Source: a virus (taxonomy: Duplodnaviria > Caudoviricetes). Taken from it: DNA of 64,000 bases. Shown here one piece after another: positions 9,901-64,000 of this stretch (its first letter is position 1; each line of letters starts with the position of its first letter). Location of the stretch: the IMG/VR virus record IMGVR_UViG_3300025016_000004, one strand, 5' to 3'. The position numbers and the translations under genes are program-made. The notes beneath the pieces are model-generated. The model did no database searches. It was not told the origin of the DNA and saw nothing but the letters and a program-made list of their open reading frames with translations.

Positions 9901-10077
9901 GAACTTAAATCAGAAGCTGGTCAAAAAAGGTATGGGGTAATAGCTCAAGAGTTAGAAAAAGACCACCCTAGTTTTATTAGAACAAATGCTGAAGGTATGA
10001 AGTCTGTAGCATATATAGATTTACTTATTGCCAAGGTAGCTGAATTAGAAGCAAGAATAAATAAATTAGAGAAATAA
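6985..10077 (+). CDS. Tail fibre with C-terminal intramolecular chaperone (peptidase S74-like)
   Basis: Repeated GNVGIGTTxP motifs; C-terminal SSDKRLKTKIKDL...GVIAQELEK...VAYIDLLIAKVAELEARINKLE is the typical S74 auto-cleaving chaperone with a coiled coil. Confidence 0.85.
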   Translation: MANEFIIRNGFISKSGSTVQNFLNVSGNTTSAAFVTIGGTELQFVKGDGTLDSNTYLTGVTDANISFSGTPNYVPVFDASSNLTDSPIYISGGSSNVGIGTTGPTEKLHVSGNTLMTGKVAASGATLTGLSNQGSEATALVIDSSGIVGTRELGSGAFVSSGSYLLDTTDTFTGVLTINGEIISTGNIYSQTNLLLDSNKRIVFDTDFDGFSFIENDFTNTYSHGINAMIHGGYPTGHHFIDGEDSTYTPVYASNFTATGTLQGTRLISTQTTGTAPFTVASTTVVPNLNADLLDGVQGSSFLRSDVADTKTSGNLIFNNDIRLQFGNTPNVDLRSFSGGDFGITTYISTGDPNIVFKRDASIQFTFNMPSGNFIATGEIRNLANKFYIGNSDTRTIIRDNNSGATIISQNQVGGGTLFFRPNNDVSPVGQATLEPSGNFIATGAIFSKNSMTIDNGLADGGSLSLRSLGYNSWEFDNFSGALRMFQGGTVKQTILENGNVGIGTSTPDYLFEVENPSGPGAFTTIANFKSGTDADNTGAQINVGMNSRGWFVRAGRNVGNVAISTMGQRESYGSFDYMTFKGGNIGIGTASPNELLEVAGSTGATIRITSTKNGTWTVGEELGALEFYGSDTSGAGANVKASIRVSDFNTFGAAHNMTFYTNGGTTEAERMRITATGNVSIGNTNDTYKLDVSGTCRFTGALRAEGNIQLASDASTIVNGNNASILRNNGSSTIISSQNNIMYFRPVGDASTTGQATLDTAGNFITTGAITSKNSMTIDNGLADGGSLSLFSLGHNSWQFDNFSGALRMFQGGTVKQTILENGNVGIGTTTPQSRIHVQNNSDNANIAMFKGFSTNINDVTTISVNNGFSTEYGKQVKIGAVAESASSNATGMALFTSPNSSTALERVRISSDGNVGIGTTSPAYKLDVTGTGRFTGDVTATNFVLSSDKRLKTKIKDLEIEPININWKQFELKSEAGQKRYGVIAQELEKDHPSFIRTNAEGMKSVAYIDLLIAKVAELEARINKLEK

Positions 10078-10082
10078 TTATA

Positions 10083-10703
10083 ATGAAGAAATATCACTAC
10101 TTATATATAACAGAAAATCTAATAAATAAAAAATTATATATTGGAGTACATTCTACTGATAATATAGAAGATGGTTATTTAGGTTCTGGTATGAATATTT
10201 TACGAGCTATAAAAAAATATGGAAAAGAAAATTTTGAAAGAGAAATTATTGAGTTTTTTGATTCTAGGGAAGAGGTAGAAGAAGCAGAAAAATTAATTGT
10301 TAATAAATATGTAGTAGATTGTAATCTATTTTATAATTTAAAAGAGGGTGGATGCCTTCCTCCTATAATGATAGGGAAAGATAATCCTATGTTTGGTAAA
10401 GAAAAAAATAAAGACACTAAATCTAAAATTTCTAATTCATTAAAAATATACCAAAGCAAAAATGGGTACAATAAACCTAATCTAGGTAAAAATTTTAGTG
10501 AAGAGTGGAAAGAAAATATAGGAAAAAGCCTAACTGGTAAAAAGAGACCAGAAATGTCAAGCAAAGTTTCTAGTCCAGTACAACATACTAAATTAAATAT
10601 ATTTTTTTCAAGCCTAAAAGAAGCTTGTGTAGTAATGGATATAAATTTAAGTACTGAGAGAGGTAGAATGTGGAGAAACAAATCTGATTTTAAATTTATA
10701 TAA
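10083..10703 (+). CDS. Free-standing GIY-YIG homing endonuclease (Seg-like) with NUMOD3-type repeats
   Basis: YLYITENLINKKLYIGVHST..YLGSG...E..E...YNLKEGG catalytic motifs; NPMFGK and GKNFSEEWKENIGKSLTGK DNA-binding motifs. Confidence 0.85.
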   Translation: MKKYHYLYITENLINKKLYIGVHSTDNIEDGYLGSGMNILRAIKKYGKENFEREIIEFFDSREEVEEAEKLIVNKYVVDCNLFYNLKEGGCLPPIMIGKDNPMFGKEKNKDTKSKISNSLKIYQSKNGYNKPNLGKNFSEEWKENIGKSLTGKKRPEMSSKVSSPVQHTKLNIFFSSLKEACVVMDINLSTERGRMWRNKSDFKFI

Positions 10704-10705
10704 AA

Positions 10706-11533
10706 ATGGTTCCAAATACAAATACATTTTCTTTACAAGATGTGGTAAATGAAATAATACCTACTACAAATGATTTAGCTAGTTGTATTGCAGATGCTAA
10801 TGCAAGTTTTTATGACCCAAGTTATTACACAGCACCGGCAACAAGTTTATTAGAGTTTAGAAATTATGGAGCAATTTCAGTATTTCCAACTGTTAGCAAC
10901 ACTTCTGGTGGTATTAATAACGTTGGGGGGTTTGGAGGTTTTGCAGATATAACAATAGGTGCTTCTGATACAATAGCCATGATATTTATATCTGCATATT
11001 CTAATTTAGGCACTGTTAGTGTTACTGATGATAAAGGTGTTACTTGGAGTCTATATGGAACTCCTTCTAGTAAACAGGCCATTTATTACACTTCGGATTT
11101 AGCTACAACGGGTGTTAGAAGGATTACATATAGCCTTTCAGGTACTTTTTATAGTGCACACTTAGCTGCAACATTTATAAATAGTGCTAATACACCTTCT
11201 GGCACTTTTATAACTAACTCAAGTACTTCAAGTACCTCAGTATCTCAATCTTTTACCCCAGTAGTAGCTACTCCATCTCTTATATTATCTATTTATTTTT
11301 CTTATAGAGGTGGAGAAGTGGGCTCAGTATCTGAATTAGACCCAACATCTTATGGTACTGGACAAGTATTTATAGACTCGGAGGGAGCAGATGGGTCTGG
11401 TGGCCCTCCTGATTTTGTTACAACCTTAACTAAAGAAGAAAAGACATCAACATCAGCAGATACACAATTATTTACAAATCTTATTACAAATGATAATAAG
11501 TTTATTATGTCTGTTGGTCTTAATGGAATTTAA
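10706..11533 (+). CDS. Putative virion or fibre-associated protein
   Basis: Ser/Thr/Gly-rich beta-type composition; follows the S74 fibre; N-terminus MVPNTNTFSLQDVV...SLLEFRNYG. Confidence 0.55.
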   Translation: MVPNTNTFSLQDVVNEIIPTTNDLASCIADANASFYDPSYYTAPATSLLEFRNYGAISVFPTVSNTSGGINNVGGFGGFADITIGASDTIAMIFISAYSNLGTVSVTDDKGVTWSLYGTPSSKQAIYYTSDLATTGVRRITYSLSGTFYSAHLAATFINSANTPSGTFITNSSTSSTSVSQSFTPVVATPSLILSIYFSYRGGEVGSVSELDPTSYGTGQVFIDSEGADGSGGPPDFVTTLTKEEKTSTSADTQLFTNLITNDNKFIMSVGLNGI

Positions 11534-11613
11534 CATAAAATAAAAAATAAGCTCTTAATTTTCCGTAAAGGATTTTTAACTATTTTTGTAAATAAATCTA
11601 AATCAAATCTAAA

Positions 11614-11847
11614 ATGCAAAAAAACATTAGAAAATTAATAGTTGGGGATAACTACTCTTACAATATTAAATATGTAAAAGGTGCTGAATACAAAGTAGGT
11701 ACTAAAAAGTGTATAATAACAGACTTCATTATAAATGAAGAAACAAACAGTATAGATATTTACGTAACTGACGGAGATTCAAAATTCTTATGGAAAACTA
11801 TCGGCTCAATTCCCTTAGAGGTAGAGTACGATGTAAACTTTTCATAA
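11614..11847 (+). CDS. Small hypothetical protein
   Basis: 77-aa ORF with an A-rich leader and TATTTTTG (11581-11588) upstream. Confidence 0.65.
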   Translation: MQKNIRKLIVGDNYSYNIKYVKGAEYKVGTKKCIITDFIINEETNSIDIYVTDGDSKFLWKTIGSIPLEVEYDVNFS

Positions 11848-11848
11848 C

Positions 11849-12046
11849 ATGAAAGCTACATTATATTTTCTTGTAGAAGTAACAAATGATTACAATAACT
11901 ACGAGACTCTTTCTAATGGATTAGAGGTGATGACTAATAATACAATAGAGAGTGTAGAAAACGTAAATAGAATAGTATTGGATTACCTGTCAACGCCAAT
12001 ACCAAAAAATTGGTTAAATGGTTATTTCTTAATAACGTTTATTTAG
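11849..12046 (+). CDS. Small hypothetical protein
   Basis: 65-aa ORF starting 1 nt after the previous stop. Confidence 0.55.
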   Translation: MKATLYFLVEVTNDYNNYETLSNGLEVMTNNTIESVENVNRIVLDYLSTPIPKNWLNGYFLITFI

Positions 12047-12136
12047 GTTGTGAACCTATCGGGGCTCAATTCTCATTTTAATCAATATATATCGTATTAA
12101 AGGTGTAAAGCTCATATTTATATAGAAATAGGGTTT

Positions 12137-13345
12137 ATGGCTTTTGTAACCAAAGTAGACTATTCCGATAATAGACAAATAAAACAGTATCTTCTTACGG
12201 ATACACAACTTTCTGGTACAACCACTTTTGGTATTGCCGATGCATTGATACCAATGAATGTTAGTGGTGATACTATTAATATTGATGCCTTACAATATAT
12301 TCAAGCTAGAGGTATTATTTTACCAAATTCATTACCCTTATTTACTGGTGCTACATCACAAATATTAGGTAGGGATAACGATACTGGTAAAATTGTTGAA
12401 ATTGAACTCAGTGGGGTTACCTTTACTGGTGGTAGTGATTATGTAGTTTCTAGTTCATTTAATATAGGTACTGGTGATTTAACTTTAACTAGAGTTTCAG
12501 GTGGGACTGTTATTACAAATTTAGATGGTCGTTATTTAACTGGTACTACTGAAATCGTAGAGTCAATTGCTAACCCTTTAAATGTTTATTTTGCAAACAG
12601 AGTTAAACCTGTTTCAGATAATGAAGGATTTTATGTTAATGCGTCATCAAATAAAGATTCTGGATATCTTGTAAATAATACTGACACCGTGGGCAATGCA
12701 GCGTTAGCTGGTTTTAGAGCTACAGTTAATGGAGACCCTTTTGGTAATGGTTTTTATTTTGGAGTTCCAAATACTAATTATTTTGCGCCATGGTTAAGGG
12801 AGCATGGAATAATAACGGGTAAAGATTTAAATATAATGGTCGGCACCAACGCTGGTACGATAAGCTTTTCACAAGGTAATACGAGTACTAACCAAATAAC
12901 AGAAGCTCAACAAGATAAAGTTTTACTCTTTAATACCGATAGAACCATTGTAGCACCAAGTTTAAGTAAAACGTTAATTGAGGGTGAGTCAAGTGGTAGA
13001 ATATTAACTACTAGAGAATTTTTAGAAAGTAATTATGTTAAAATAGGTAAAAGGATTATAGTTAGTGGTGCAACATCTTATAATTTTGACCATTCACTAG
13101 CTACTGATTGGAAATTTTACATGACAGGTGCAACCACATTTTCAGATAGTAATTTACCATCAGGTGATACTATAATCGAATTTACTGTAAAATTAACTGG
13201 TAATTTTACAGTAACTTGGCCAGTATATTGGGATGTTATTGGGGATACATACGATGGTACTATTTGGAACTTTATAGTGGTACGGGTACATGATGGAAAT
13301 TCTGGGACTGAAGAGGTTACGGCCTTAATTTCAAATATAGTGTAA
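12137..13345 (+). CDS. Short tail fibre-like protein, N-terminal paralogue of 1074..6926
   Basis: Starts MAFVTKVDYSDNRQIKQY..T.LSGTTTFG versus MSFVTKLDYSDNRQIKQF..T.LSGTTEFG, and carries one DYV...GDLTLTRVSGGTVITNLDGRY repeat. Confidence 0.75.
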   Translation: MAFVTKVDYSDNRQIKQYLLTDTQLSGTTTFGIADALIPMNVSGDTINIDALQYIQARGIILPNSLPLFTGATSQILGRDNDTGKIVEIELSGVTFTGGSDYVVSSSFNIGTGDLTLTRVSGGTVITNLDGRYLTGTTEIVESIANPLNVYFANRVKPVSDNEGFYVNASSNKDSGYLVNNTDTVGNAALAGFRATVNGDPFGNGFYFGVPNTNYFAPWLREHGIITGKDLNIMVGTNAGTISFSQGNTSTNQITEAQQDKVLLFNTDRTIVAPSLSKTLIEGESSGRILTTREFLESNYVKIGKRIIVSGATSYNFDHSLATDWKFYMTGATTFSDSNLPSGDTIIEFTVKLTGNFTVTWPVYWDVIGDTYDGTIWNFIVVRVHDGNSGTEEVTALISNIV

Positions 13346-21517: not shown

Positions 21518-21772
21518 TTATGTATTTAAAGATTGAATTAATACAATTGCTTGGTCAATTGTTTGGAAACTCCTATTTGGAACCAATACATGTTTATCAA
21601 ATATGATGATAGGGATTACAGGTTCACCAACGAAATCAAATAATTTAATGACATGTTCTCTATTGGAATCATCATCAATATTTATATTGGTGAACTCAAG
21701 GTTTAATTTGCTTAACTTTTCTTGTAAATCCTTACAATAAGGGCAATTATTACTTGTATATACTTTTATCAT
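21518..21772 (-). CDS. Glutaredoxin / NrdH-like redoxin
   Basis: IKVYTSNNCPYC active site and a VIP cis-Pro motif, 84 aa. Confidence 0.9.
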   Translation of the reverse strand: MIKVYTSNNCPYCKDLQEKLSKLNLEFTNINIDDDSNREHVIKLFDFVGEPVIPIIIFDKHVLVPNRSFQTIDQAIVLIQSLNT

Positions 21773-24678
21773 AACTCTAATCCGTTTTCTTCTAAATCAT
21801 TTAATAATCTGGATAATCTATCACTAGTTTTATCACCTCTATTTAATATTTTATCAATATTTTTTTGTTTATTCATCACAGAATACCACATCACAAAAGA
21901 TACTGTACCTCTAAATAATTGGTAATAAACTGAAACGTTATTTTTCTGCCCGATTCTGTAACAATTATGAACATTATAATTACCAACTACAAATGAGTGG
22001 TCATCTTCTACTGATAAATCATAAACCCTTTCCTCACCTCTTTTAGGTTTTGAAATTTTAATTGATTTAATCGGGTAAGTAATATAATCACCTACTTGAT
22101 TAATTCTTTTATTTTCAACTCTATTTAATGAATACTCAATTGAGTAATTATTAACATTTTTATTAGATAAAGTAACACTCCTACCTAAATTAGCGTTATA
22201 TCTAACCAATTGTGATATTAATTTTAAAGAAGCGGTAGTAGCTTGTTGAGTATTTTTACGTTGGTAACCATCACCATGATAATACCCATCTAATAAATGT
22301 TTTAATTGTTCATTATTTAAATAATCAACCCAATATGGTAATTGTTTAGAATATACATTTTCACCGAACCACATTTTAAATAAATTTGCCATTTCACTAG
22401 AATGTATGGTACAAGTTTTTGTATTATTTTTATCAACATAAGATGAATGTTTATCAATTTTAAAACCCCTTTTTATTATATCAATAATATATTCTGAAGC
22501 GTCATACATTTTAGGGTTAGTTATTTTTTGACATACATTAATTGTATCTGATTTATTATCAGAAATACTACACCAACCATCAGCAATGTAAAACCCAAAA
22601 GCGTATAATAATTCATTAGTTAATAAAACACTTTTAGGTAAAGTAACTAACCTACCATTGGTTTGTAAAAGATTGTGATTATTTTTAAAGTACTTACTTT
22701 TAAAACTTGGTATTTTTAATTCTTCTAATCTACTTATTGGTTGATGTTCACTTCTAATCGTTAAAAAATGATTCAAAATATTTAAATCTTTTGCTTCAAT
22801 CCAAATAAAATCATCTAATATTTTATCATATACATATAATTTATGGTCATGTGTAACTGATAAACTGTTATTATATCCAAAAGCATTTATATCATATCTT
22901 AATTTTTTACGTTCTAATTTAGAAGTTTTATCAATTACATTTTTAAATTTACCTTTATGTGTATAAACTTTATCACCAATTTCAATTTCTTGAATCATTT
23001 TATAACCATCGTCAGTCATAACCCATTGGTCACCAAATATACATCTATCTTCCGCTTGTTCATTATCCCCTGGCACCCAACTGAATGAATTAAAGATAAC
23101 CACAGTACCTTCAGTTAACGTAATACCAACACCCGCAGAAGCTATATTTCCAATAAATACCTTACATTTCTTATTGGTTTGGAATTTATCCACTGATTTT
23201 TGTTTTTCAGTTGAATTCATTCTACCATTATGTATAACGCATTGATTTCCGAAATGTTCAGCTAATTCTTCCAATTCATCAGTAAAAGTAGTAAAAATAA
23301 CGATTTTTTGACCTTGTTCTATGGCATCTTCAGCTAATTCGATTGTTTTTGGTATCACTTCCATAGCAATAAACTTTCTTAAAAGACCTAATTCAACCAA
23401 ATCTTTATTTAAACTAACTCGCTTACCTTCAGCCGCCTTTTTCTCTAAATATTCTTCCCAAAGGTTTTCATATTCAGCCCAACCACGTTTTGACATATCA
23501 TGATACATTGTGGTAATGGTTTTATCTGGCATATCCAAAACATCAGTTTTTAATCTTCTTAAAAGGTTGTTTTTAGTTCTAATTCCTAATTCATCTAAAT
23601 TAGAAGCACCATCAGTTATCCAAATCTGTCTTTTAACTCCGTTTATTACTTTATAAAATCTTTTAGCATCACAATATCTTTGAGCAAAGAACTTCCAATT
23701 ATCAGCCAATGGTGATTTAACCAATTTTAATAAATTGAAGAAATCCATAGGTCTATTAGCAATTGGTGTACCTGTTAATAACCACACTTTACCGATTTGA
23801 CCTTTAGAAACAATATCATTGATTAATTTGGTTCTTTGAGCTTTGGGGTTTTTAACCTTATGAGCTTCATCTAAAATCATCAAATCATAATCTTCATCAA
23901 TTATATTGGTGTAACAAGGGTCACCTTCTTTTTTAGGTTTACCTATACTGTGAAAGTTTTTAAGTATTTCATAATTTATAATGGTAAACCTACCAACGTG
24001 AGACCACTTACTACCATTAATAATCGTAGCTTTTTGTTTAAAACTTTCTATTTCTCGTTGCCAAGTAATTTTCATACTCACTGGACAAATTATTAAAACT
24101 TTTTTAATATCCATTTCTAATGCAGCGATAATTGATTGATAAGTTTTTCCTAGGCCCATCGAATCAGCTAAGATTGCACCATCTCTACACGCTAAGAACT
24201 CAATACCACTTTTTTGATGCTCATATGGGTGACGGCCATCAGTGTCTAATTCTTCATATTTACCCCAATCAATTTCAATTTCACATTCAGTAAAATATGG
24301 GTCATCCAAAACCATTGTTTTTGGTAACCAATACATTTTGGATTGTTTTTGTTTTTGTGTTAGCTTACCATAAACGTGATATGTCTTTTCTTGGTCAGCC
24401 AACATTGCTTGAATTAGCATACGCTCAGGTACAAAAGATAAACTGTATTTATCTTTTAATGATTCACCTAGAAATGGGTTAATCCTAATCACACGATTTA
24501 GGACTTGTGGTTCCACATCATGAAATTTATTTATATATTCAACTTGACCTTCAGTTAAAGTTATTTTATCATTTTTTCTTAACTTACTTTGCAAGTCTTT
24601 TAAGTATGGGTTAATCCCTGTATATGTTTGTAATAAGGTTACTGCACCTCTACTCTTTATGTCTTCTAAATTTATCAA
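21769..24678 (-). CDS. SNF2/SWI2-family helicase with one intein (about 609 aa after splicing)
   Basis: LADSMGLGKT, DEAH, LTGTPIAN, GVGITLT; motif VI QAEDR|CYRIGQ interrupted by the intein. Confidence 0.93.
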   Translation of the reverse strand: MINLEDIKSRGAVTLLQTYTGINPYLKDLQSKLRKNDKITLTEGQVEYINKFHDVEPQVLNRVIRINPFLGESLKDKYSLSFVPERMLIQAMLADQEKTYHVYGKLTQKQKQSKMYWLPKTMVLDDPYFTECEIEIDWGKYEELDTDGRHPYEHQKSGIEFLACRDGAILADSMGLGKTYQSIIAALEMDIKKVLIICPVSMKITWQREIESFKQKATIINGSKWSHVGRFTIINYEILKNFHSIGKPKKEGDPCYTNIIDEDYDLMILDEAHKVKNPKAQRTKLINDIVSKGQIGKVWLLTGTPIANRPMDFFNLLKLVKSPLADNWKFFAQRYCDAKRFYKVINGVKRQIWITDGASNLDELGIRTKNNLLRRLKTDVLDMPDKTITTMYHDMSKRGWAEYENLWEEYLEKKAAEGKRVSLNKDLVELGLLRKFIAMEVIPKTIELAEDAIEQGQKIVIFTTFTDELEELAEHFGNQCVIHNGRMNSTEKQKSVDKFQTNKKCKVFIGNIASAGVGITLTEGTVVIFNSFSWVPGDNEQAEDRCIFGDQWVMTDDGYKMIQEIEIGDKVYTHKGKFKNVIDKTSKLERKKLRYDINAFGYNNSLSVTHDHKLYVYDKILDDFIWIEAKDLNILNHFLTIRSEHQPISRLEELKIPSFKSKYFKNNHNLLQTNGRLVTLPKSVLLTNELLYAFGFYIADGWCSISDNKSDTINVCQKITNPKMYDASEYIIDIIKRGFKIDKHSSYVDKNNTKTCTIHSSEMANLFKMWFGENVYSKQLPYWVDYLNNEQLKHLLDGYYHGDGYQRKNTQQATTASLKLISQLVRYNANLGRSVTLSNKNVNNYSIEYSLNRVENKRINQVGDYITYPIKSIKISKPKRGEERVYDLSVEDDHSFVVGNYNVHNCYRIGQKNNVSVYYQLFRGTVSFVMWYSVMNKQKNIDKILNRGDKTSDRLSRLLNDLEENGLEL
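21964..23043 (-). mobile_element. Intein with LAGLIDADG endonuclease in SNF2 motif VI (360 aa)
   Basis: Begins CIFGDQWVMT and ends VYDLSVEDDHSFVVGNYNVHN|C; FGFYIADG and LDGYYHGDG motifs. Confidence 0.93.
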
Positions 24679-55228: not shown

Positions 55229-57679
55229 ATGAGTGACATCAACAAGCAAGATGGTTTTGGATTTTTAGGAATTCCTTACCAAAGAAGACTTATAACCCAA
55301 TTAATCACAGACCATAAATTTGCTACAAATATAATGGGGATAGTAGACCCAAACTACTTCACAGATTTATATTTGAGAATTATAGCATCTGAAATAAAAA
55401 ATGCGTTTGAGACTGATGAAGTTATACCAGATATTGAAAGCTTAGAATTTAGGTTAAATGGTAGAAAAGATAATGAAACTACTAAACTATATATCAAAGC
55501 ATCAATAGCTGAAATTAAAGATGGTAACCTGAACGATTCAGAATATGTTCAGGATATGGCCATGAAATTTTGTAAACAACAAGAATTAAAGAAATCAGTT
55601 CATGAAATTCAAGAAATAATAGATAAAGGTGATTTAGATTCATATGATGAATGTGAAGAAATATTAAAAAGAGCGTTAGAAGTCGGAAGTGATAAAGATT
55701 CTGGAATTGATGTTTTTTTTAATATTGAGGCAGTTCTAGAGGATGATTTTAGAAAACCAATACCTACAGGTATTGCTGGTTTAGATGATAAAATGGGTGG
55801 TGGTTTATCAAAAGGTGAATTGGGTGTTATATTAGCACCGTTTGGTGTTGGTAAAGCACAACCATTACATTCTAAAATATTAACACCTAATGGTTGGACT
55901 ACTATGGGTGAGATACAAGTTGGTGATGAAGTTATAAGTAGGGATGGTAAAGCGACTAAAGTCACTGGAGTGTTTCCACAAGGCGTTAGACCAATTTATG
56001 AGGTTAGATTTAATGATAATACTAAAACTTTATGTGATGCTGAACATTTATGGTCAGTTAATACAATCAATCAACGAAATAGAAAAACTAAAAAAAATGG
56101 TGTGATGGTTAAATTAGAACCTGATAATTCATTTAAAACTTTAAAAACTATTGATATGGTTGATAAAGTTAGGGTTTGGGGTAATAAGCGTTTAAATTAT
56201 AAAATACCAAATATCTTACCCGTAAATTTTAATAAAAATGAATTAATTATTAACCCATATTTATTAGGTGTTATATTAGGTGATGGATGTATAACTGAAC
56301 ATAATCAACCCCATATTACAACTAAAGATGTTGAATTAATAGATGAAATTGAAAAATATCATAATAATATTAATATTACTGAGCAAACACGAATGTTTGA
56401 AGTTTACAAAAATGGGAAATTTGAAAATGTAGAAAGAACCTTAACAAAAATTTCTTTATTAGGTATTAAAGATGATTTAAGTAGTTTAAAATTATATGGT
56501 TGTAATTCAGAAACTAAATTTATCCCACATAACTATCTATATTCTTCAGTTGAAGATAGAGTTTCGTTATTACAAGGATTAGTAGATACTGATGGTTATA
56601 TTGGTAACAATAGAATTGAGATTTGTACCGTATCAAAAATGATGTCGGAACAAATCAAAGAATTAGTATTGTCATTAGGTGGTACTTGTAATATAGGTGT
56701 AAAAATTGGTAGTTATTTGAAAGAGGGGGTTAAAATTAGATGTAAAAAAGCATATCGAGTTTATTTTAGTTTACCAACACAAATAAAATTTAATCCATGT
56801 AGACTTGAAAGGAAGTTGAATAATTTAAGTAAAAGGTCTAAATATGCTAATAATAAATTTATTACTAGTATTGAATATTCACATGAGGAAGAAGCTCAAT
56901 GTATTATGGTTGATAATCCAGAACATTTATATATAACTGATGATTATATAGTAACACATAACACAACCATGGTCACCAAAATAGCCAACGAAGCTTTTAA
57001 TCATGGATATAATGTTCTTCAAATATTTTTTGAAGATATTCCTAAAGTGATTCAAAGAAAACATTTATCATGTTGGACTGGGATAGCTCAAAACGATTTA
57101 CCATTAAAAGCAAACAGACCCATCATTGATGAAGTCATGAAAGAAAAAAATGATGGTAAAGGGTATTTAGAATTGAAAAAATTTCCTAGTGATGGAACAA
57201 CAATTCCTATGATTAAAAATTATATTAGAAAACTAGCAGCCGCTGGTAGAAAACCTGATGTAATTTTAATTGATTACATTGATTGTGTATCATCAACCAA
57301 ACATTACGATAAGGGATATGAGGCTGAAGGGCCAATTATGAGACAATTCGAATCATTATTGAGCGAATTTGATTTGGTTGGATGGACTGCAATTCAAGGT
57401 AATCGATGTGTTTCATTAGATACTATTATTGAAGATTCTAAACGTGGTAAAATTGAAATTAGAGATGTTAAGTTAGGGGATGAAATTTTAACTCATAAGG
57501 GTTACAAAAAAGTTACCCATATATTTCCTATTGCTAAGCAACCAGTTTATAAAATAAAATTAAAATCTGGTAAAACCATTAAAGTATCTAAAAAACATAA
57601 GTTCCCAACAAAAGATGGTGAAATGTTATCAATTGAAGATGGTTTAAAAGTTGGAAACATACTTTTAGGTAAAAAATAA
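55229..57679 (+). CDS. dnaB: DnaB/gp41-like replicative helicase, N-terminal half (contiguous intein plus split-intein IntN)
   Basis: PTG...LD....GG...GELGVILAP.GVGK|T Walker A, LIDYID Walker B; ends QGNR|C-IntN-stop. Confidence 0.93.
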   Translation: MSDINKQDGFGFLGIPYQRRLITQLITDHKFATNIMGIVDPNYFTDLYLRIIASEIKNAFETDEVIPDIESLEFRLNGRKDNETTKLYIKASIAEIKDGNLNDSEYVQDMAMKFCKQQELKKSVHEIQEIIDKGDLDSYDECEEILKRALEVGSDKDSGIDVFFNIEAVLEDDFRKPIPTGIAGLDDKMGGGLSKGELGVILAPFGVGKAQPLHSKILTPNGWTTMGEIQVGDEVISRDGKATKVTGVFPQGVRPIYEVRFNDNTKTLCDAEHLWSVNTINQRNRKTKKNGVMVKLEPDNSFKTLKTIDMVDKVRVWGNKRLNYKIPNILPVNFNKNELIINPYLLGVILGDGCITEHNQPHITTKDVELIDEIEKYHNNINITEQTRMFEVYKNGKFENVERTLTKISLLGIKDDLSSLKLYGCNSETKFIPHNYLYSSVEDRVSLLQGLVDTDGYIGNNRIEICTVSKMMSEQIKELVLSLGGTCNIGVKIGSYLKEGVKIRCKKAYRVYFSLPTQIKFNPCRLERKLNNLSKRSKYANNKFITSIEYSHEEEAQCIMVDNPEHLYITDDYIVTHNTTMVTKIANEAFNHGYNVLQIFFEDIPKVIQRKHLSCWTGIAQNDLPLKANRPIIDEVMKEKNDGKGYLELKKFPSDGTTIPMIKNYIRKLAAAGRKPDVILIDYIDCVSSTKHYDKGYEAEGPIMRQFESLLSEFDLVGWTAIQGNRCVSLDTIIEDSKRGKIEIRDVKLGDEILTHKGYKKVTHIFPIAKQPVYKIKLKSGKTIKVSKKHKFPTKDGEMLSIEDGLKVGNILLGKK
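55856..56962 (+). mobile_element. Class 3-type intein (Ala1, WCT triplet) with LAGLIDADG endonuclease in the helicase P-loop (369 aa)
   Basis: GK|AQPLHSKILTPNGW...DAEHLW...EAQCIMV...IVTHN|T; LGVILGDG and LQGLVDTDG motifs. Confidence 0.9.
57407..57676 (+). mobile_element. Split intein N-fragment of dnaB (90 aa)
   Basis: CVSLDTII...IEIRDVKLGDEI...VSKKHKFPT; blocks A and B only, then a stop. Confidence 0.92.
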
Positions 57680-57746
57680 TAATAATCTTTTTTGTATTGC
57701 ACTTAAACTTTTACATTATCGGTGATATTTATATTAAAATATTATC

Positions 57747-58889
57747 ATGATTAAAATTGACGTAGAAAATGTAATTAATAGAAAAACCATAAAACCCCTT
57801 TATCTAAAAGGGGTTTTAACTCAAAGACATAAAAATGAAATAAATAATATTTGTGATGTATATAATAGTGTTACTATAAAAAATAGAATTAAAAATATAC
57901 ACGATTTTATAAAATATGATGTTGACGGTACAATCCCTTGGGTTAAAAGGTTGGAAATTATACAGAAAGAATTGAATAATGATATTGCTAGTAAGTATGC
58001 CTTAGAAATAAGATATGGTAAGTGTAATGTAGATAAAAAGAGGTTTGAATTGGGGGTTAAGTTTTCTCATACTTTGGAAAAGTATATTGAAAAATATGGT
58101 AAAATAATCGGTAATGAAAAGTATGATGAATATTTAAGAAAATCTAAAACACCTTGGGGTTTAAAAGGTTGTGTGGATAGATATGGTGAAATAGAAGGTA
58201 AAAAAAAATGGGTGGAAAGGTTAAATAAAAAAATAAACACTCAAAATGAAAGAAAAAAAATAAAACCATATAGGAATGGTAGGACATTGAATGAATATCA
58301 AAATAAATATGGTGTAAAACTTGGTTACTTTAAGTGGAAAAAAAGAAATGAAAAGCAGAGTTATAGATTCTCAAAAAAATATTATATAAATACTTATGGT
58401 AGTGAAAAAGGTAATATTAAATGGGTTGAGTATAAAAAAAGTATGGATAAAACTTCCTTAAAAAGTTTTATCAATAGGTATGGAGAAAAAGATGGGATTA
58501 ATAAATATGAATCTTATTTAAGTAAAATTAATGATAGTGGTGTTTTTTATAGTAAAAGTTCACAAAAGTTATTTTGGTTAATTTATAATCAATTAAGTGA
58601 CGATAAGAAAAAACTTTGTCGTTTTGCAAAATTAAATGGTGAAGAATATTTCATAGTAAATAAATTTGGTTTTAACAATATTTTAGTAGATTTTAAATGT
58701 GAGAATAAAATAATCGAATTTGATGGAGATTATTGGCATTTAAATAAAAAACAAATTGAAATTGATAAATTGAGGGATGAGTTTTTAACTTCTAAGGGTT
58801 ATCAGATTTTAAGGGTTAGAGATAGTGAATTTGAGGTTAATAAAGAAAAAGTAATTAAAGAATGTATAAAATTTATAAAAAATGAATAA
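57747..58889 (+). CDS. Free-standing Vsr/DUF559-like endonuclease between the dnaB halves
   Basis: At least five KYGxxxGxxK(W/Y) repeats; C-terminal VDF...KIIEFDGDYWH...D..RD..L..KGY.ILRV. Confidence 0.8.
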   Translation: MIKIDVENVINRKTIKPLYLKGVLTQRHKNEINNICDVYNSVTIKNRIKNIHDFIKYDVDGTIPWVKRLEIIQKELNNDIASKYALEIRYGKCNVDKKRFELGVKFSHTLEKYIEKYGKIIGNEKYDEYLRKSKTPWGLKGCVDRYGEIEGKKKWVERLNKKINTQNERKKIKPYRNGRTLNEYQNKYGVKLGYFKWKKRNEKQSYRFSKKYYINTYGSEKGNIKWVEYKKSMDKTSLKSFINRYGEKDGINKYESYLSKINDSGVFYSKSSQKLFWLIYNQLSDDKKKLCRFAKLNGEEYFIVNKFGFNNILVDFKCENKIIEFDGDYWHLNKKQIEIDKLRDEFLTSKGYQILRVRDSEFEVNKEKVIKECIKFIKNE

Positions 58890-59397
58890 AAATGAAATTA
58901 TGAATCTAGAGGGGTTTACTTTAGATGAAATAGAGAGTATTGACTTAATAGGTGAAGAAGATACCATAGATATAACTGTGGATGATACCCATATGTTTTT
59001 CGCTAATGATATATATACACATAATTCATCGATTAATGCTGAAAATGTTGATTCAAGTATGATTGGTGGGTCAATCAAAAAAGGTCAAATTGGGCATTTT
59101 ATTGTTTCAATAGCTAAAGATTTAGACCAAAAAGAGGGTGGTAGAGCTAATATGGCGATATTAAAATCTAGGTTTGGTGTAGATGGAATTATTTTTACTG
59201 ATGTAGTATTTGATAACTCCAAAATACAAATAACTATTGATGAAGGTAAAGTATTAAAAGCTTCAGAAATGGATGACTATAAGAATGAACAAGTTAAAGG
59301 AAGAATGAAAGATTTGTTCGAACAATATGAAAAAACTAAAGAAGTTTTAATCACTTCTGAAGTTGATAAAAAAGAAAAAACAGAGGATGTTAACTAA
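58882..59397 (+). CDS. dnaB: DnaB helicase C-terminal half preceded by split-intein IntC (48 aa, 58882-59025)
   Basis: ...EDTIDITVDDTHMFFANDIYTHN|SSINAE...GGSIKKGQIGHFIVSI...ILKSRFG (helicase motifs H3/H4 and the arginine finger). Confidence 0.92.
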   Translation: MNKNEIMNLEGFTLDEIESIDLIGEEDTIDITVDDTHMFFANDIYTHNSSINAENVDSSMIGGSIKKGQIGHFIVSIAKDLDQKEGGRANMAILKSRFGVDGIIFTDVVFDNSKIQITIDEGKVLKASEMDDYKNEQVKGRMKDLFEQYEKTKEVLITSEVDKKEKTEDVN

Positions 59398-62300
59398 AAA
59401 AGAAAAAAGAGTTAAATATTTTAGCGGTGATGATTTAGCCGCAACGGTTTGGAATGATAAATACAAACTAGGGGATGAAGGTTCGGAAATTGAAGAATCT
59501 ACGCCAGCTGATATGCACTTAAGAATGGCAAAAGAATTTGCTAGAGTTGATGGTAAATATCAAGTAAAAGAATTAAAAAAATTATTGGATAATCCAGAAA
59601 TTAAACTTAGTGATTATGGATTTAATCGTAAAGATTTAACAGTTAAAGAAATATACGCTTTATTGGAGAATTTTGGTAAAATAGTTCCACAAGGTTCTGT
59701 TATGTCACAGTTAGGTAATGACGAACAAATTGGTTCATTATCTAATTGTTTTGTTATAGGACAACCTGAAGATTCTTATGGTGGAATTATGCTTAAAGAC
59801 CAAGAATTGGTTCAATTGATGAAACGTAGAGGTGGTGTAGGTATCGATATATCGTCATTAAGACCTAGTGAAACTCCAACATCAAATGCGGCCAAGAGTT
59901 CAACTGGTGCAGTTTCTTTTATGGAAAGATTTAGTAACTCAACTAGAGAAGTTGCTCAAAATGGTCGTAGAGGTGCACTTATGCTTTCAATTGATGTAAG
60001 ACATCCAGATGTAGCTGATTTCGTTAAGATTAAGAATGATAGAACCAAAGTTACTGGTGCTAACATATCAGTTTCATTAAGAGATGATTTCATGAAAGCG
60101 GTTAAAGCTGATGGGGATTATATTTTAAGATATCCAATTAATGAAGAAATACACCCTGAATGGGATGGATTGAATGAATATGAATATAATAAATTATATA
60201 CGCTAGAAGATGCTAATAACGTTAAAACTTGGGTTAAAAAAATTAAAGCTAAAGAATTATATGACCTTATAATTGAGAATGCTTGGGACAACGCTGAACC
60301 TGGTCAGATTTTCATTGATAGACACTGGGATTATAGCCCTGATGGTGTTTATCCAGAATATAGAGGTATAACTACAAACCCTTCATTGCGTCATGATACA
60401 TTAATACAAACTGATTTAGGGTTATACCCTATAAAGGAATTAGCTGAAAGTGATGGGTTAACAATCGTTAAAAATATTAAAAATGAATGGCAAGTTGGTA
60501 AAGTGTTTTTATCTGGTAAAGGTAAAGAATTGTATAAAATTACTTTTACTAATGGATATGAAGTATATTGCACTGCTGAGCATAAATGGCCGATATTGAA
60601 TTCACAGAAAAATATTTTTAATAAAGTGAATGGTTCGGTTTTGAAAAAAAGGACTGATGAGTTAATGTTTGGACACCCAAAACTTGGTGGTGATAGAACA
60701 CATTTAGAGTTTAACCCTAATTATGAGGGTAATGTGAGTTGTAAATTAACAAAAAATGATGGATTTTTAAGTGGTTATTGGTTAGGTGATGGACACACTT
60801 CGATAACAACTGAGGGAGTTAAACAATACGGATTTATAGTATCTGATGATGAATTATTAGATTGTGGCGATAAATTACTTAATATAATCGGTGAAAATAA
60901 AATAAAAAACACTAACAATAATTTTAATAGAGACCATGAAAGTGAAGCATACTCACTATATATTAGCGAGATTGGATTCAGAGAGTATTGTGATAGATTA
61001 AAATTAGGGTATGATAAAATTAATGGGATACCCGAAACAGTTTTCAAAAGTGGTAATAAATTTATAAAAGGGTTTATAGATGGATTGTTTTCTGCTGATG
61101 GCTCTGTGTGGGCTAATGAAGATTTAGTACATAGTAGAGTTACATTAACAAGTAGTAGATTTAACATAGTAAAAGACGTTCAAAAATTATTAAATTTATT
61201 TGGAATTTCTAGTAATATACAAGAGCGTAAAGATAAGTTAAATGATAAAACGTTTACTGGGTATAATTTAGTTATTAGTGGGGTACACAGTAGGAAATTT
61301 GCAACGTGTTTTACTTTAACTTCTAAAGATAAACAAGATAAATTAGATACTATATTAAATTATGAAAACACATATAAAGATAATAGAGAGTATTTAATTA
61401 TTAAAAATGTTGAACCAACTGGTATTTTTGAGGATGTGTATGATATAACAGTATTTGATGATACACACACTTTTAAAGGAGAGTTTGGTACGACTGGTAA
61501 TTGTGGTGAAATATTTATGCAACCATATGATGCTTGTAGATTAATGGCATTGAATTTTTATTCATTTGTAGATAACCCATTTACTAAAAACGCTAGAGTC
61601 AATTATCAAGCTGTATATGAAGCGGCCTACGAGCAACAAAGATTAGCTGATGATTTAGTTGATTTAGAATTAGAAAAAATTGATAGAATTATCGCTAAGG
61701 TTAAAAATGACCCTGAAAGCGAAATGACAAAAGCTGTTGAATTACAACTTTGGGAAAATATCCGTAAAGTTGCAGCTTCTGGTAGAAGAACTGGATGTGG
61801 TTTTACTGGGTTAGGTGATATGATTGCGGCCACTGGTGTTGATTATGATTCTGAAGAAGGGTTAGATATCATTGATAAGGTTATGAGGGCTAAAATGAGC
61901 GGTGAGTTAGACTGTACTATCGATTTAGCAGCTCTTAGAGGTCATTTCGATGGATATAACAACGAATTAGAGTATTCTGATGGTGTAGGCACCAATGAGT
62001 TCTTTAAGATGCTTAAAACTGAGTTTAAAGAGCAATATGATAGAATGATTATTTATGGAAGAAGAAACGTATCATTCTCAACGGTTGCACCTACAGGTTG
62101 CTTAGTTAAAGAAACTAAACTAAAAACAAATCGAGGTATCATTGAATTGAAAGATTTATTTTTAATTAATGGTATTGATATAGATAAATTAAAAAATGAA
62201 AAAAATATTTGGTTTGATATTGAAGAAGAAATAATGGTTTATGATATTAATGGTGGTGAACATAAAATAAATAAATTATATTGGAATGGTTATAGTAAAA

Positions 62301-62443
62301 CTAAAAAAATTAAATTGGGTAATAATGAAAGTGTTGAATCTAGTACCGAACATAAGTGGTTGGTTAGGGTTTCTGAAACTGAGGCTAAATGGGTTAGAGC
62401 TGACGAATTGAAAATTTCTGATAAAATTATTAAAATAAATTAA
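59363..62443 (+). CDS. nrdJ: Class II (B12-dependent) ribonucleotide reductase, N-terminal half (contiguous intein plus split-intein IntN); start may be ATG 59387
   Basis: SNCFV, RRGGVG.D.S.LRP, RRGALM, TTNP|CGEI, C.L, RR.G.G..G; ends STVAPTG|C-IntN-stop. Confidence 0.92.
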   Translation: MIKKKKQRMLTKKEKRVKYFSGDDLAATVWNDKYKLGDEGSEIEESTPADMHLRMAKEFARVDGKYQVKELKKLLDNPEIKLSDYGFNRKDLTVKEIYALLENFGKIVPQGSVMSQLGNDEQIGSLSNCFVIGQPEDSYGGIMLKDQELVQLMKRRGGVGIDISSLRPSETPTSNAAKSSTGAVSFMERFSNSTREVAQNGRRGALMLSIDVRHPDVADFVKIKNDRTKVTGANISVSLRDDFMKAVKADGDYILRYPINEEIHPEWDGLNEYEYNKLYTLEDANNVKTWVKKIKAKELYDLIIENAWDNAEPGQIFIDRHWDYSPDGVYPEYRGITTNPSLRHDTLIQTDLGLYPIKELAESDGLTIVKNIKNEWQVGKVFLSGKGKELYKITFTNGYEVYCTAEHKWPILNSQKNIFNKVNGSVLKKRTDELMFGHPKLGGDRTHLEFNPNYEGNVSCKLTKNDGFLSGYWLGDGHTSITTEGVKQYGFIVSDDELLDCGDKLLNIIGENKIKNTNNNFNRDHESEAYSLYISEIGFREYCDRLKLGYDKINGIPETVFKSGNKFIKGFIDGLFSADGSVWANEDLVHSRVTLTSSRFNIVKDVQKLLNLFGISSNIQERKDKLNDKTFTGYNLVISGVHSRKFATCFTLTSKDKQDKLDTILNYENTYKDNREYLIIKNVEPTGIFEDVYDITVFDDTHTFKGEFGTTGNCGEIFMQPYDACRLMALNFYSFVDNPFTKNARVNYQAVYEAAYEQQRLADDLVDLELEKIDRIIAKVKNDPESEMTKAVELQLWENIRKVAASGRRTGCGFTGLGDMIAATGVDYDSEEGLDIIDKVMRAKMSGELDCTIDLAALRGHFDGYNNELEYSDGVGTNEFFKMLKTEFKEQYDRMIIYGRRNVSFSTVAPTGCLVKETKLKTNRGIIELKDLFLINGIDIDKLKNEKNIWFDIEEEIMVYDINGGEHKINKLYWNGYSKTKKIKLGNNESVESSTEHKWLVRVSETEAKWVRADELKISDKIIKIN
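60383..61501 (+). mobile_element. Intein with LAGLIDADG endonuclease directly before the RNR catalytic Cys (373 aa)
   Basis: TTNP|SLRHDTLIQ...CTAEHKW...VYDITVFDDTHTFKGEFGTTGN|CGEI; GYWLGDG and IDGLFSADG motifs. Confidence 0.92.
62099..62440 (+). mobile_element. Split intein N-fragment of nrdJ (114 aa)
   Basis: CLVKETKLKTNRG...ESSTEHKWLV...WVRADELKISDKI, then a stop; no block F or G. Confidence 0.9.
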
Positions 62444-62447
62444 CTAA

Positions 62448-62483
62448 AACGCCCTTTGTTTTATACTTATTACAAAGGGCGTT
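62448..62483 (+). promoter_or_regulatory. Strong hairpin abutting the endonuclease start codon
   Basis: aacgccctttgt / acaaagggcgtt perfect 12-bp stem with a 12-nt loop; no T-tail; ATG at 62488. Confidence 0.7.
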
Positions 62484-62487
62484 AGTT

Positions 62488-63600
62488 ATGAAAATAAAAT
62501 ATGTAGAATATTATAATGAATTGGTTAGTAAATATGGTGAAGAAGATGGGTTAAAAAAATATAAATCATTTTTGAGGTCATCAACATTAGAAACTTATAT
62601 TATTAAATTTGGTGAAAAGCGTGGTACAGATAAATTCAATAATAAGAAAAAGTCAGGAATATCACTAGAAAAAATGATTGAGAAATATGGTGAAAAAGAC
62701 GGTACTAATAGATATAATAATTGGTTATCTAAAATTAGGCAAGATTTACCAAATTTTATTAAGAGATATGGTGAAAAAGACGGATTAAAAAAATATAATG
62801 AATTTAAAGATAATTGTATTGTTAAAACAAAAATAAAAGAAAACCCCAACTCAAAATATAATAATAGGTTACATAATACTAGATATGAATTTTTTTTAGA
62901 AGAAAATAATGGTGATATTAATAAAGCTAAAAAACAATTAATTAAAAGACAAAGAACGAGTGATTTAAAATCTTTCATTAAAAAACACGGCTTAATAGAG
63001 GGTGAAAAAAAATATAAATTAGCTAATAAAAAAAAATCTAATAATATTAAGAATTTTATTAGATTATATGGTGATGTTGAAGGTAATAGACGATATTTTA
63101 ATTATATTAAAAAACTAAAATATATTCATAGTGAAAAATATTATTTAGATAAGTATGGTGAAATAGAAGGTAAAGTTAGGTGGGTAGAATTGATTAATAA
63201 AAAAACTAATAATTTTATTAATGGTCAATCTAAAATTGGTGATGAATTTTGTAATAATTTATTTAATGAAATAAAAAAAGATGTTGATGATAAATATTAT
63301 TTTTCTGAAAATGAATATAAATTCTTTATTCATGATGAAGAATATAAAATAATTCAGCCAGATTTTTTAATTAAAGAAAGTAAAATAGTTGTTGAATTTT
63401 ATGGTGATTACTGGCATAGAAATCCAGAAATATATAATGATGATATTTCAAAAATAATTAGGGAAAAAGATGAAGAAAGGATAAAAAAAATAGAATCTTT
63501 AGGGTATATCATATATATTATATGGGAAAAGGAATATCGTTTAAATAAAATTGGAGTAATAAAAAATTTAAGTAATAAAATAATTAATAAAATAAAATAA
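62488..63600 (+). CDS. Free-standing Vsr/DUF559-like endonuclease between the nrdJ halves
   Basis: About seven (K/R)YGExxGxx(K/R)Y repeats; C-terminal QPDF...KIVVEFYGDYWH...D.ER...IESLGY.IYIIWE. Confidence 0.8.
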   Translation: MKIKYVEYYNELVSKYGEEDGLKKYKSFLRSSTLETYIIKFGEKRGTDKFNNKKKSGISLEKMIEKYGEKDGTNRYNNWLSKIRQDLPNFIKRYGEKDGLKKYNEFKDNCIVKTKIKENPNSKYNNRLHNTRYEFFLEENNGDINKAKKQLIKRQRTSDLKSFIKKHGLIEGEKKYKLANKKKSNNIKNFIRLYGDVEGNRRYFNYIKKLKYIHSEKYYLDKYGEIEGKVRWVELINKKTNNFINGQSKIGDEFCNNLFNEIKKDVDDKYYFSENEYKFFIHDEEYKIIQPDFLIKESKIVVEFYGDYWHRNPEIYNDDISKIIREKDEERIKKIESLGYIIYIIWEKEYRLNKIGVIKNLSNKIINKIK

Positions 63601-64000
63601 TGAAGGAAAATAACGAAATAATTGATATTAGTAATGTTAATTACAGTGAATGTGAAATATTAGATATTGTAGATGGATATGATTATACTATGGATTTTGA
63701 GGTGGGTGATACACATTACTATACATTAGAAAATGGTTTAGTGAGTCATAATAGTGTGAGTATTCTTACTCAAACTACTTCGGGGTTAGAGCCAGTATTT
63801 TCCGTATTCCCTTATTTAAGACGTAAAAAGTTAAACCCTAACGATAAAAACGCTAGAGTAGATTTTACTGATGATAATGGTGACCAATGGCAAGAGTTTT
63901 CAGTAACTCATAAACCGCTTATGGATTATATCAAAATCAATAAATTGGATGAAGCAATCACTGAATTAAATGATAAAATGAATAAAACCAAAGCTGAAGA
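63600..64000 (+). CDS. nrdJ: NrdJ C-terminal half preceded by split-intein IntC (51 aa, 63600-63752); partial and not in the ORF track
   Basis: My translation is MKENNEIIDISNVNYSECEILDIVDGYDYTMDFEVGDTHYYTLENGLVSHN|SVSILTQTTSGLEPVF...; splicing restores APTG-SVS..TTSGLEPVF. Confidence 0.92.
   Translation, partial: MKENNEIIDISNVNYSECEILDIVDGYDYTMDFEVGDTHYYTLENGLVSHNSVSILTQTTSGLEPVFSVFPYLRRKKLNPNDKNARVDFTDDNGDQWQEFSVTHKPLMDYIKINKLDEAITELNDKMNKTKAE

Follow-up and report, generated by a model that had tools for sequence, protein, structure and literature searches.

The 64,000-nucleotide stretch of DNA from a large aquifer phage recorded in IMG/VR as IMGVR_UViG_3300025016_000004 (Caudoviricetes; the whole stretch is called the window below) ends, at positions 55,229 to 64,000, in two neighboring genes that cannot be read as single frames: dnaB, for a DnaB/gp41-like helicase, and nrdJ, for a class II ribonucleotide reductase (RNR). 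Each appears to be interrupted by a contiguous intein and broken again by a split intein, the N- and C-terminal fragments of which (IntN and IntC) are encoded on either side of an endonuclease gene. Are these functional genes of the fractured type described by Dassa et al. (2009), and does the presence of two of them side by side mean, as a reading of the letters alone (the sequence-only reading) had proposed, that their split inteins co-evolved as an orthogonal pair and gate phage replication? The locus is a real example of the known fractured-gene class, denser than the published cases and the same in kind. We put the probability at about 0.85 that the two genes were broken by repeated, independent invasion, that they depend on cis- and trans-splicing, and that their endonuclease genes are repressed; the second proposal is improbable.

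Layout of the locus

From position 55229 to the end of the window, the map of open reading frames (ORFs) and their translations show seven co-directional, closely packed ORFs on the plus strand, with dnaB spanning 55229–59397 and nrdJ extending from 59387 to beyond the window end. Both genes follow the same order of extein, LAGLIDADG intein, extein, IntN, stop codon, Vsr-like (EDxHD) endonuclease, IntC, and extein, with the following parts (lengths in amino acids, aa, or nucleotides, nt).

55229–57679, plus strand: dnaB-N, N-terminal gene of the DnaB/gp41-like helicase, 816 aa; exteins 55229–55855 and 56963–57406
55856–56962, plus strand: contiguous dnaB intein, 369 aa (residues 210–578), between GVGK and TTMV
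57407–57676, plus strand: helicase IntN, 90 aa, net charge +10, site GNR/S, gp41-8 lineage
57715–57751, plus strand: weak hairpin in the endo1 leader, with the AUG inside and promoter-like TATTTATA at 57726–57733
57747–58889, plus strand: endo1, free-standing Vsr-like (EDxHD family) predicted homing endonuclease, 380 aa, five KYG repeats
58882–59397, plus strand: dnaB-C gene; IntC 58882–59025, 48 aa, net charge −12, ending THN; extein beginning SSINAE
59387–62443, plus strand: nrdJ-N, N-terminal gene of the class II RNR; exteins 59387–60382 and 61502–62098
60383–61501, plus strand: contiguous nrdJ intein, class 1 LAGLIDADG, 373 aa, Ser1...GN/C, between TTNP and CGEI
62099–62440, plus strand: NrdJ IntN, 114 aa, net charge +1, basic interface strand KTKKIKL, site VAPTG/S
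62448–62483, plus strand: perfect 12-bp hairpin, its end 4 nt short of the endo2 AUG
62488–63600, plus strand: endo2, free-standing Vsr-like (EDxHD family) predicted homing endonuclease, 370 aa, seven KYG repeats
63600–64000, plus strand, running off the window: nrdJ-C gene; IntC 63600–63752, 51 aa, net charge −11, ending SHN; extein beginning SVSILTQ

Profile searches with Pfam, NCBIfam, and PHROGs support the DnaB, NrdJ, Hint, and LAGLIDADG domains and assign the endonucleases to DUF559/MTES_1575/Vsr. Together with the ORF layout, they bear out the sequence-only reading in its description of two neighbors of like architecture, each a gene of the Dassa type that needs one cis- and one trans-splicing event. 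A recount returned exactly the net charges of −12 and −11 that it had given for the IntC fragments, and KYG repeats were counted in both endonucleases. The best NCBIfam model for NrdJ, TIGR02504 (NrdJ_Z), scored 295.8 bits, and the interrupted, partial state of the gene keeps this score under the cut-off; judged by sequence, the enzyme is a class II RNR (NrdJ) rather than class I, and nrdB does not adjoin it, unlike in the related contigs L004, L006, L009, and L011. Read from an identical contig, the complete nrdJ-C product has 403 aa. The start of nrdJ-N overlaps the end of dnaB-C by 11 nt and is most likely the ATG at 59387 rather than an upstream TTG.

The fine spacing of the genes resembles that of published fractured genes, where 27–51 nt precede the endonuclease and the 3′ end of the endonuclease gene overlaps the IntC frame by 6–69 bp in 15 loci (Dassa et al., 2009; PMC2677866). 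The corresponding spacers are 67 nt before endo1 and 44 nt before endo2, and the overlaps 8 nt in dnaB, within the published range, and 1 nt in nrdJ, which is shorter. The statement that each IntC start codon overlaps the endonuclease stop is thus correct for nrdJ, where the two form TAATG, but not for dnaB, where the frames overlap and the codons share no base, the IntC ATG (58882–58884) sitting 3 nt before the endo1 TAA (58887–58889).

Junctions and an intein-free allele

A 7-kb viral contig (L012) carries the gene order of the window, namely a 5′-3′ exonuclease, a 186-aa gene, dnaB, and nrdJ, at 73–85% aa identity. Its DnaB is an uninterrupted protein of 475 aa that reads GVGKTTMI and QGNRGSINAD, and its NrdJ is unbroken at TTNPCGEIFMQ and VAPTGSVSILTQTTSGLEP. 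Since this contig represents a natural empty allele at each of the four predicted excision points, it confirms all four, and the junction peptides predicted from the window agree with it. The same contig has a NrdJ intein of its own (L012:2617–6528) at a third site, LSN/CF, upstream of the two window sites.

The helicase inteins

By its sequence, the split intein of the helicase is a new allele within the gp41-1/gp41-8 lineage. Its IntN matches 6QAZ, the structure of the gp41-1 intein (E 2e-14), its junction QGNR/SSI falls at the same NR/S point as that of gp41-8, and comparison by eye with the gp41-8 sequence in the supplement of Pinto et al. gave roughly 50% identity. All 16 helicase split alleles drawn from viral contigs keep Cys1, the block B His, THN, and the +1 Ser, and combine a basic IntN (+5 to +15) with an acidic IntC (−8 to −15).

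The contiguous dnaB intein is of a different kind. Class 3 inteins are recognized by the lack of a position-1 nucleophile, by a block B Trp at position 12, a block F Cys, and a block G Thr at position 5, and by a +1 Ser or Thr (PMC2807308). Located in the Walker A P-loop and bearing two LAGLIDADG motifs, the window intein begins with Ala1, having no Cys, Ser, or Thr at that position, and contains AEHLW (the Trp standing two residues past the block B His), a block F Cys in AQCIMV, and VTHN/T. The class 3 features are conserved in seven homologues, with Ala1 after GVGK common to the window and six homologues, and on these residues the element is a class 3 (WCT) P-loop intein. In three runs, window positions 55872–55915 and 56924–56965 are also matched by a 29.5-kb contig that shares only the intein ends, with 993 other bases between them, and has a depth equal to that of the phage (about 73–82x); a related intein probably resides in another gene of the same genome.

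The NrdJ inteins

The contiguous nrdJ intein lies directly N-terminal to the thiyl-radical Cys (TTNP/CGEI), which is the commonest position for RNR inteins (PMC2677866). The split, at VAPTG/SVS, is about 200 residues further downstream. Identity of the split intein with NrdJ-1 was considered and rejected; the site is not NPC/S, NP/C is occupied by the contiguous intein, and the polarity is opposite. Comparison of its IntN with PDB sequences gave no meaningful match. At least nine other protein clusters consist of NrdJ C-halves that begin with a homologous acidic IntC at the same site, and three contigs (L085 to L087) show the context expected of a PTG/S split. Catalytic residues are kept in 10 IntC homologues, and homologues of the split intein occupy the same loop (PTAS/S) of class I NrdA genes. 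The PTG/S split intein belongs to a widespread family that is apparently undescribed in the literature searched.

Pairing of the NrdJ halves is supported from two directions. A complex model of IntN with IntC scored 0.74, compared with 0.11 for the best control. Of 78 solved complexes, 51 scored 0.74 or more, as did 2 of 108 mismatched pairs; model runs agreed in at least 94% of contacts, with a partner pLDDT (predicted local distance difference test) of 73. As split-intein complexes have already been solved, the model supports pairing as a likeness and not as proof. The second line comes from the NrdA homologues of L004, L006, L009, and L011, in which IntN is acidic (net −7 to −11) and IntC carries +1; on alignment, the strands concerned are acidic in IntN (...KIEMEDG...) and basic in IntC (MKIKKISKG...). 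Window NrdJ is reversed on both halves (...KKIKLGNN... and ...ECEILDIVDGYDY...), and its IntC has an additional 16-aa acidic N-terminal extension. Such a compensated charge swap lends support to electrostatic pairing of the halves.

Endonucleases and their leaders

endo1 and endo2 are paralogues, 26% identical over 307 aa, and together with a third copy in the same genome (L095:16321–17340) they match phrog_22677. endo1 passes the Pfam cut-offs for both MTES_1575 and DUF559, and the alignment of endo2 to Vsr retains three catalytic residues, the Asp of PDF, the His of WH, and the Asp of EKDEER, as well as the Glu specific to the family, in VEF. The two are consistent with the EDxHD family as defined on I-Bth0305I and are predicted to be homing enzymes. 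Their KYG repeats recur with a period of about 25–29 aa. In all three endonucleases, the N-terminal two thirds are made up of such 25–29-aa arrays (...F/YI.KYGE..G..KY..Y/W...), which have no Pfam match and may form a modular DNA-recognition array.

In the published model of fractured genes, a hairpin that holds a promoter sequesters the endonuclease start on read-through transcripts (PMC2677866). The layout in the window matches this repression model. The endo2 hairpin (62448–62483) has a folding energy of −20.3 kcal/mol and a z score of −5.5. Endonuclease-leader hairpins recur in L085 (z −6.9) and L086 (z −5.3), with stem sequences that differ from those of the window, and the helicase loci of L005, L010, and L014 have strong ones, with the AUG inside the hairpin. 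A ATATTTATA-like motif is found in hairpin loops, and at least nine copies of TATTTATA stand 14–40 nt upstream of gene starts in the correct orientation, mostly of structural genes but also of endo1.

A Shine-Dalgarno-like core precedes 3 of 30 genes; leaders are A-rich, and the IntC frames have A-rich leaders of their own, as do most genes of the phage. Together with the positions of TATTTATA, this suggests a host that does not use Shine-Dalgarno sequences (e.g., Bacteroidota) and a phage-specific promoter. With ordinary A-rich leaders in front of the IntC frames and Shine-Dalgarno sequences rare, synthesis of the C-halves need not depend on translation of the endonucleases.

How the module may work

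Taken together, the locus can be viewed as a module for replication and nucleotide metabolism in a large aquatic myovirus, one into which selfish homing elements would have moved repeatedly and independently. Each N-terminal precursor would remove its contiguous intein by cis-splicing, after which IntN, through its basic strand, and the acidic IntC would associate and ligate the halves by trans-splicing, yielding a helicase of about 480 aa and a NrdJ of about 883 aa. The endonuclease genes would stay quiet on read-through transcripts owing to a hairpin over or just before the start codon, with the promoter-like motif inside it, and the IntC-extein frames would have independent starts inside the final bases of that gene.

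Several points weigh against this account. Splicing of all four inteins is something that we infer from anatomy and homology, as we do endonuclease activity, hairpin regulation, and orthogonality. The complex model may owe its score to memory of solved split inteins. endo2 falls below the Pfam cut-off for MTES_1575 and matches the Vsr structures (1CW0, 1VSR) weakly (E 0.08), and its single-sequence AlphaFold model reached a pLDDT of 38. The endo1 hairpin is weak (z −1.3), and TATTTATA is marginally enriched in the window (33 found, 23.8 expected), so that the promoter reading rests on the positions of its copies. Finally, a cold-spring RNA library yielded four short identical contigs, in endo1, nrdJ, and endo2; these are a hint of transcription and only that, as they come from one library and could stem from contaminating DNA.

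Relatives and the independence of the elements

The sequence-only reading had called for a search for the same tandem arrangement elsewhere, and public viral contigs do show further cases of a fractured helicase gene together with a fractured RNR gene. Of 80 viral contigs with a relative of the helicase C-half, 22 carry the split intein, in some cases without the endonuclease and in some with the P-loop intein as well. In L004, a fractured dnaB is followed by nrdB and then by an nrdA that is split once. L006, L009, and L011 share the order of fractured dnaB and nrdB, and their nrdA is in three pieces by virtue of two split inteins, giving three split pairs within 7 kb; L006 and L011 have the P-loop intein in dnaB as well. 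The nrdA split sites in these three contigs are SNL/C and PTAS/S. In L009 and L011, the first two nrdA pieces are separated by another ORF, which is likely an endonuclease, and in L006 both gaps are without an endonuclease. The tandem of fractured helicase and RNR genes is therefore not special, comparable or denser loci being present in public viral contigs.

In L085, an intact dnaB adjoins a fractured nrdJ. The combinations seen thus extend from none (L012) through the NrdJ split only (L085) and the DnaB split only to DnaB with NrdA split once or twice (L004, L006, L009, L011). With every combination of the four inteins and two endonucleases represented among relatives, the elements assort independently, as expected from independent invasions.

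A third fractured gene, for an SbcC-like ATPase, was reached by a walk along identical contigs of the same genome. It lies about 43 kb past the window end (L095:15686–18611), at position 106,944 in window-equivalent coordinates. Its N-gene reads ...ANQGGK, then a 29-aa IntN, and then a stop codon, so that Walker A is split as ANQGGK/.../TT. The gap holds a paralogous KYG-repeat endonuclease, 31% identical to endo1, and is followed by an overlapping C-frame with a 128-aa IntC ending SHN, then TTFSVDAIKF and the SbcC-like body. With an IntN of 29 aa and an IntC of 128 aa, this split intein is, on its sequence, atypically split. An SbcD-like Metallophos gene stands upstream of it.

Orthogonality and the gating of replication

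The sequence-only reading saw in the two split pairs an orthogonal set that had co-evolved natively, and it proposed that trans-splicing, coupled to translation of the endonucleases, gates the onset of replication. One of its premises stands. Both window pairs have IntN(+)/IntC(−) polarity at the interface and a similar KIKL strand core, so specificity cannot come from charge and electrostatics cannot separate the pairs. Specificity of another kind does not need to have been selected, however. The two split inteins share about 24% identity in IntN (over a 41-residue stretch) and 35% in IntC, in the range where published split inteins are orthogonal by default; of 16 split inteins, 15 were mutually orthogonal in vivo, the exceptions being mostly atypically split fragments, and gp41-1, gp41-8, NrdJ-1, and IMPDH-1 have been used together in one pot (Pinto et al., 2020; PMC7090010). 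Orthogonality of unrelated split inteins being the default, absence of cross-reaction between the DnaB and NrdJ pairs would be expected from their divergence and would be no designed property. Independent assortment among relatives likewise speaks against co-evolution, as does the presence of the third split intein, in SbcC. Furthermore, NrdJ has the same polarity as the helicase pair and the opposite polarity to its NrdA homologues, the reverse of what selection for electrostatic orthogonality would produce, whereas in phages of the L006 type the polarity of the helicase pair is opposite to that of both NrdA pairs.

Gating fares no better. The overlap of the IntC frames with the endonuclease stops and the hairpins at the endonuclease starts could suggest coupling, but both are generic to fractured genes (PMC2677866). 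The hairpins sit on the endonuclease starts, the IntC frames have their own leaders, and with Shine-Dalgarno sequences so rare, endonuclease translation would be dispensable for the C-halves. A co-evolved or gating arrangement is accordingly improbable.

A more ambitious proposal goes beyond the two pairs, namely that at least three split inteins of the genome form a set proven in nature to be mutually non-interfering, in which non-electrostatic interface residues were shaped by selection against cross-splicing. We regard this as rather unlikely. Two members of the set have the same charge polarity and a similar interface strand, and one or two would be of the atypically split kind, with an IntN near 30 aa.

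Association without ligation

The fragments might alternatively serve as interaction domains, the halves assembling non-covalently and functioning unligated. A precedent is provided by the fragmented NrdA of phage Aeh1, which is reported to work without splicing (PMC3045599), and a strong predicted IntN–IntC interface would serve plain association equally well. Yet all splicing residues are kept in every allele examined, and the close relatives gp41-1 and gp41-8 splice fast in vitro (PMC7090010). The splits also fall in conserved active-site loops (helicase motif QGNR/S and RNR loop PTG/S), where a retained Hint domain of about 140–165 aa would be likely to disturb function. We consider this alternative very improbable.

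Integrity of the sequence

The locus is widely recorded. The endo2 protein is present in 98 blocks of an assembly collection, and 23 DNA runs from 23 studies, mostly of aquifer metagenomes and including one hot spring sample, contain 99–100% of sampled words. Three contigs from different samples have the same gene order and show 0, 6, and 21 nucleotide differences over 11.5 kb. In each of three runs, one contig at 63–78x depth covers all 8,772 bases with 0–2 differences and no indels; the stops and intervening genes are not assembly artefacts, a possibility that the sequence-only reading had named as a potential refutation. Megablast of the stretch against GenBank phages gave zero matches. That the locus is an artefact, or a set of decaying pseudogenes in a phage relying on host enzymes, is scarcely credible: the source is a metagenome and another contig of the same phage has a suspicious 80,191-bp loop, but independent runs and assemblers agree at this depth and without indels, every frame is open, the exteins are as close to uninterrupted homologues as the L012 comparison shows, and 17 of the 21 differences from the strain in the European Nucleotide Archive (ENA; L001) are synonymous, a pattern indicative of purifying selection.

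Thirteen of the 21 differences from the ENA strain, all synonymous, are confined to 110 nt (window 60265–60373). The end of this patch is 10 nt short of the point at which the nrdJ LAGLIDADG intein is inserted, and the intein interior and about 540 nt further upstream of the patch are identical to L001. It looks like gene conversion (co-conversion) from a diverged allele, a trace of recent homing or recombination.

In the JGI contig of 266,763 bp (L090, L091), a 14.7-kb block from downstream of the window is present twice, 80,191 bp apart; after the first copy, the contig passes via a tail-fibre gene into window positions 7765–13107 at 100% identity. The loop reflects either a misassembly mediated by repeats in fibre genes or a true duplication, and statements about genome size need care. 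The idea of an 80-kb genome assembled as a concatemer was set aside for the genome of the window, since the DNA that contains the SbcC locus is unique and collinear with that genome.

Relation to known systems

That the fractured-gene class was already known, as the sequence-only reading acknowledged, is borne out by the fit of the locus to the description of Dassa et al. (2009): dnaB and nrdJ share the published arrangement, and their junctions are confirmed by L012. As in the Dassa loci, the endonuclease leaders have a hairpin with a late-promoter-like element, strong at endo2 and weak at endo1. The closest published counterpart is the gp41-8 locus (PMC2677866; PMC7090010), likewise a phage gp41/DnaB-like helicase gene with an xNR/S split (LNR/SAY in gp41-8), a Vsr-like endonuclease between the halves, and a basic IntN and acidic IntC. 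The window differs in its new allele, in the class 3 P-loop intein within the same gene, and in a second fractured gene directly after. Published RNR sites are NP/C for NrdA-1 to NrdA-7 and NPC/S for NrdJ-1 (Dassa et al., 2009), compared with PTG/S here, and the IntN(+)/IntC(−) polarity of window NrdJ contrasts with the IntN(−)/IntC(+) of NrdJ-1 and NrdA-2.

The DnaB intein of mycobacteriophage Bethlehem, prototype of class 3 (Tori et al.; PMC2807308), shares Ala1, WCT, a +1 Thr, and the helicase P-loop with the contiguous dnaB intein. It belongs to a different phage group; the window intein contains a LAGLIDADG domain, and a class 1 split intein is present in the same host gene. I-Bth0305I, the EDxHD prototype (Taylor et al., 2011; PMC3239194), resembles the window endonucleases in its C-terminal Vsr-like core with acidic and His residues and in a separate N-terminal repeat region presumed to bind DNA. 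It is intron-encoded and has two NUMOD repeats, whereas the window enzymes are free-standing within split inteins and have five to seven repeats of 25–29 aa. In Aeh1 nrdA/mobE (Gibb and Edgell; Crona et al.; PMC3045599), an RNR gene is likewise interrupted by a free-standing endonuclease gene, the endonuclease is repressed by a hairpin that contains a late promoter, and the downstream half overlaps the endonuclease gene. The Aeh1 system lacks an intein, and its halves come together non-covalently.

The split dnaE of Trichodesmium erythraeum carries additional contiguous inteins; it is a cellular gene, and its halves lie far apart. The window differs from split dnaE in having two adjacent phage genes. 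A single gene that needs both cis- and trans-splicing is also known from the DnaE-1 locus (Dassa et al., 2009). For several split inteins in one phage, or for fractured genes in tandem, no description was found in the literature searched, although absence there is not proof. What is new here is a helicase allele of a known split intein and a member of an apparently undescribed NrdJ/NrdA split-intein family.

Further mobile elements in the genome

At L095:11078–13205, near SbcD/SbcC, a 589-aa gene with a LAGLIDADG match and an opposite-strand 108-aa LAGLIDADG ORF point to more mobile elements. Within the window itself, around positions 21960–22060 on the minus strand (ORF 21769–24678), the sequence ...RVYDLSVEDDHSFVVGNYNVHN/CYRIGQ... 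is a typical intein block F/G with a +1 Cys, and this 969-aa gene probably holds a further intein.

Significance

The findings leave the known picture of fractured genes unchanged, and their interest is moderate. Their practical side is that the lineage of gp41-1, gp41-8, NrdJ-1, and IMPDH-1 provides the fastest known protein-ligation tools, for which jointly usable sets are in demand, and a genome whose several split pairs coexist in one infected cell is a source of candidates that nature has already put to the test. The natural charge swap between NrdJ and NrdA bears on how pairing specificity is encoded; were the tentative set of at least three non-interfering split inteins real, the compensated reversal would be a natural record of the evolution of a split-intein pairing code. 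For the phages themselves, four inteins and two endonuclease genes in 9 kb illustrate the load of mobile elements that essential replication genes can bear, and the relatives, with their series of empty alleles, split alleles, and split alleles without endonuclease, provide material for testing the gene-breaking model.

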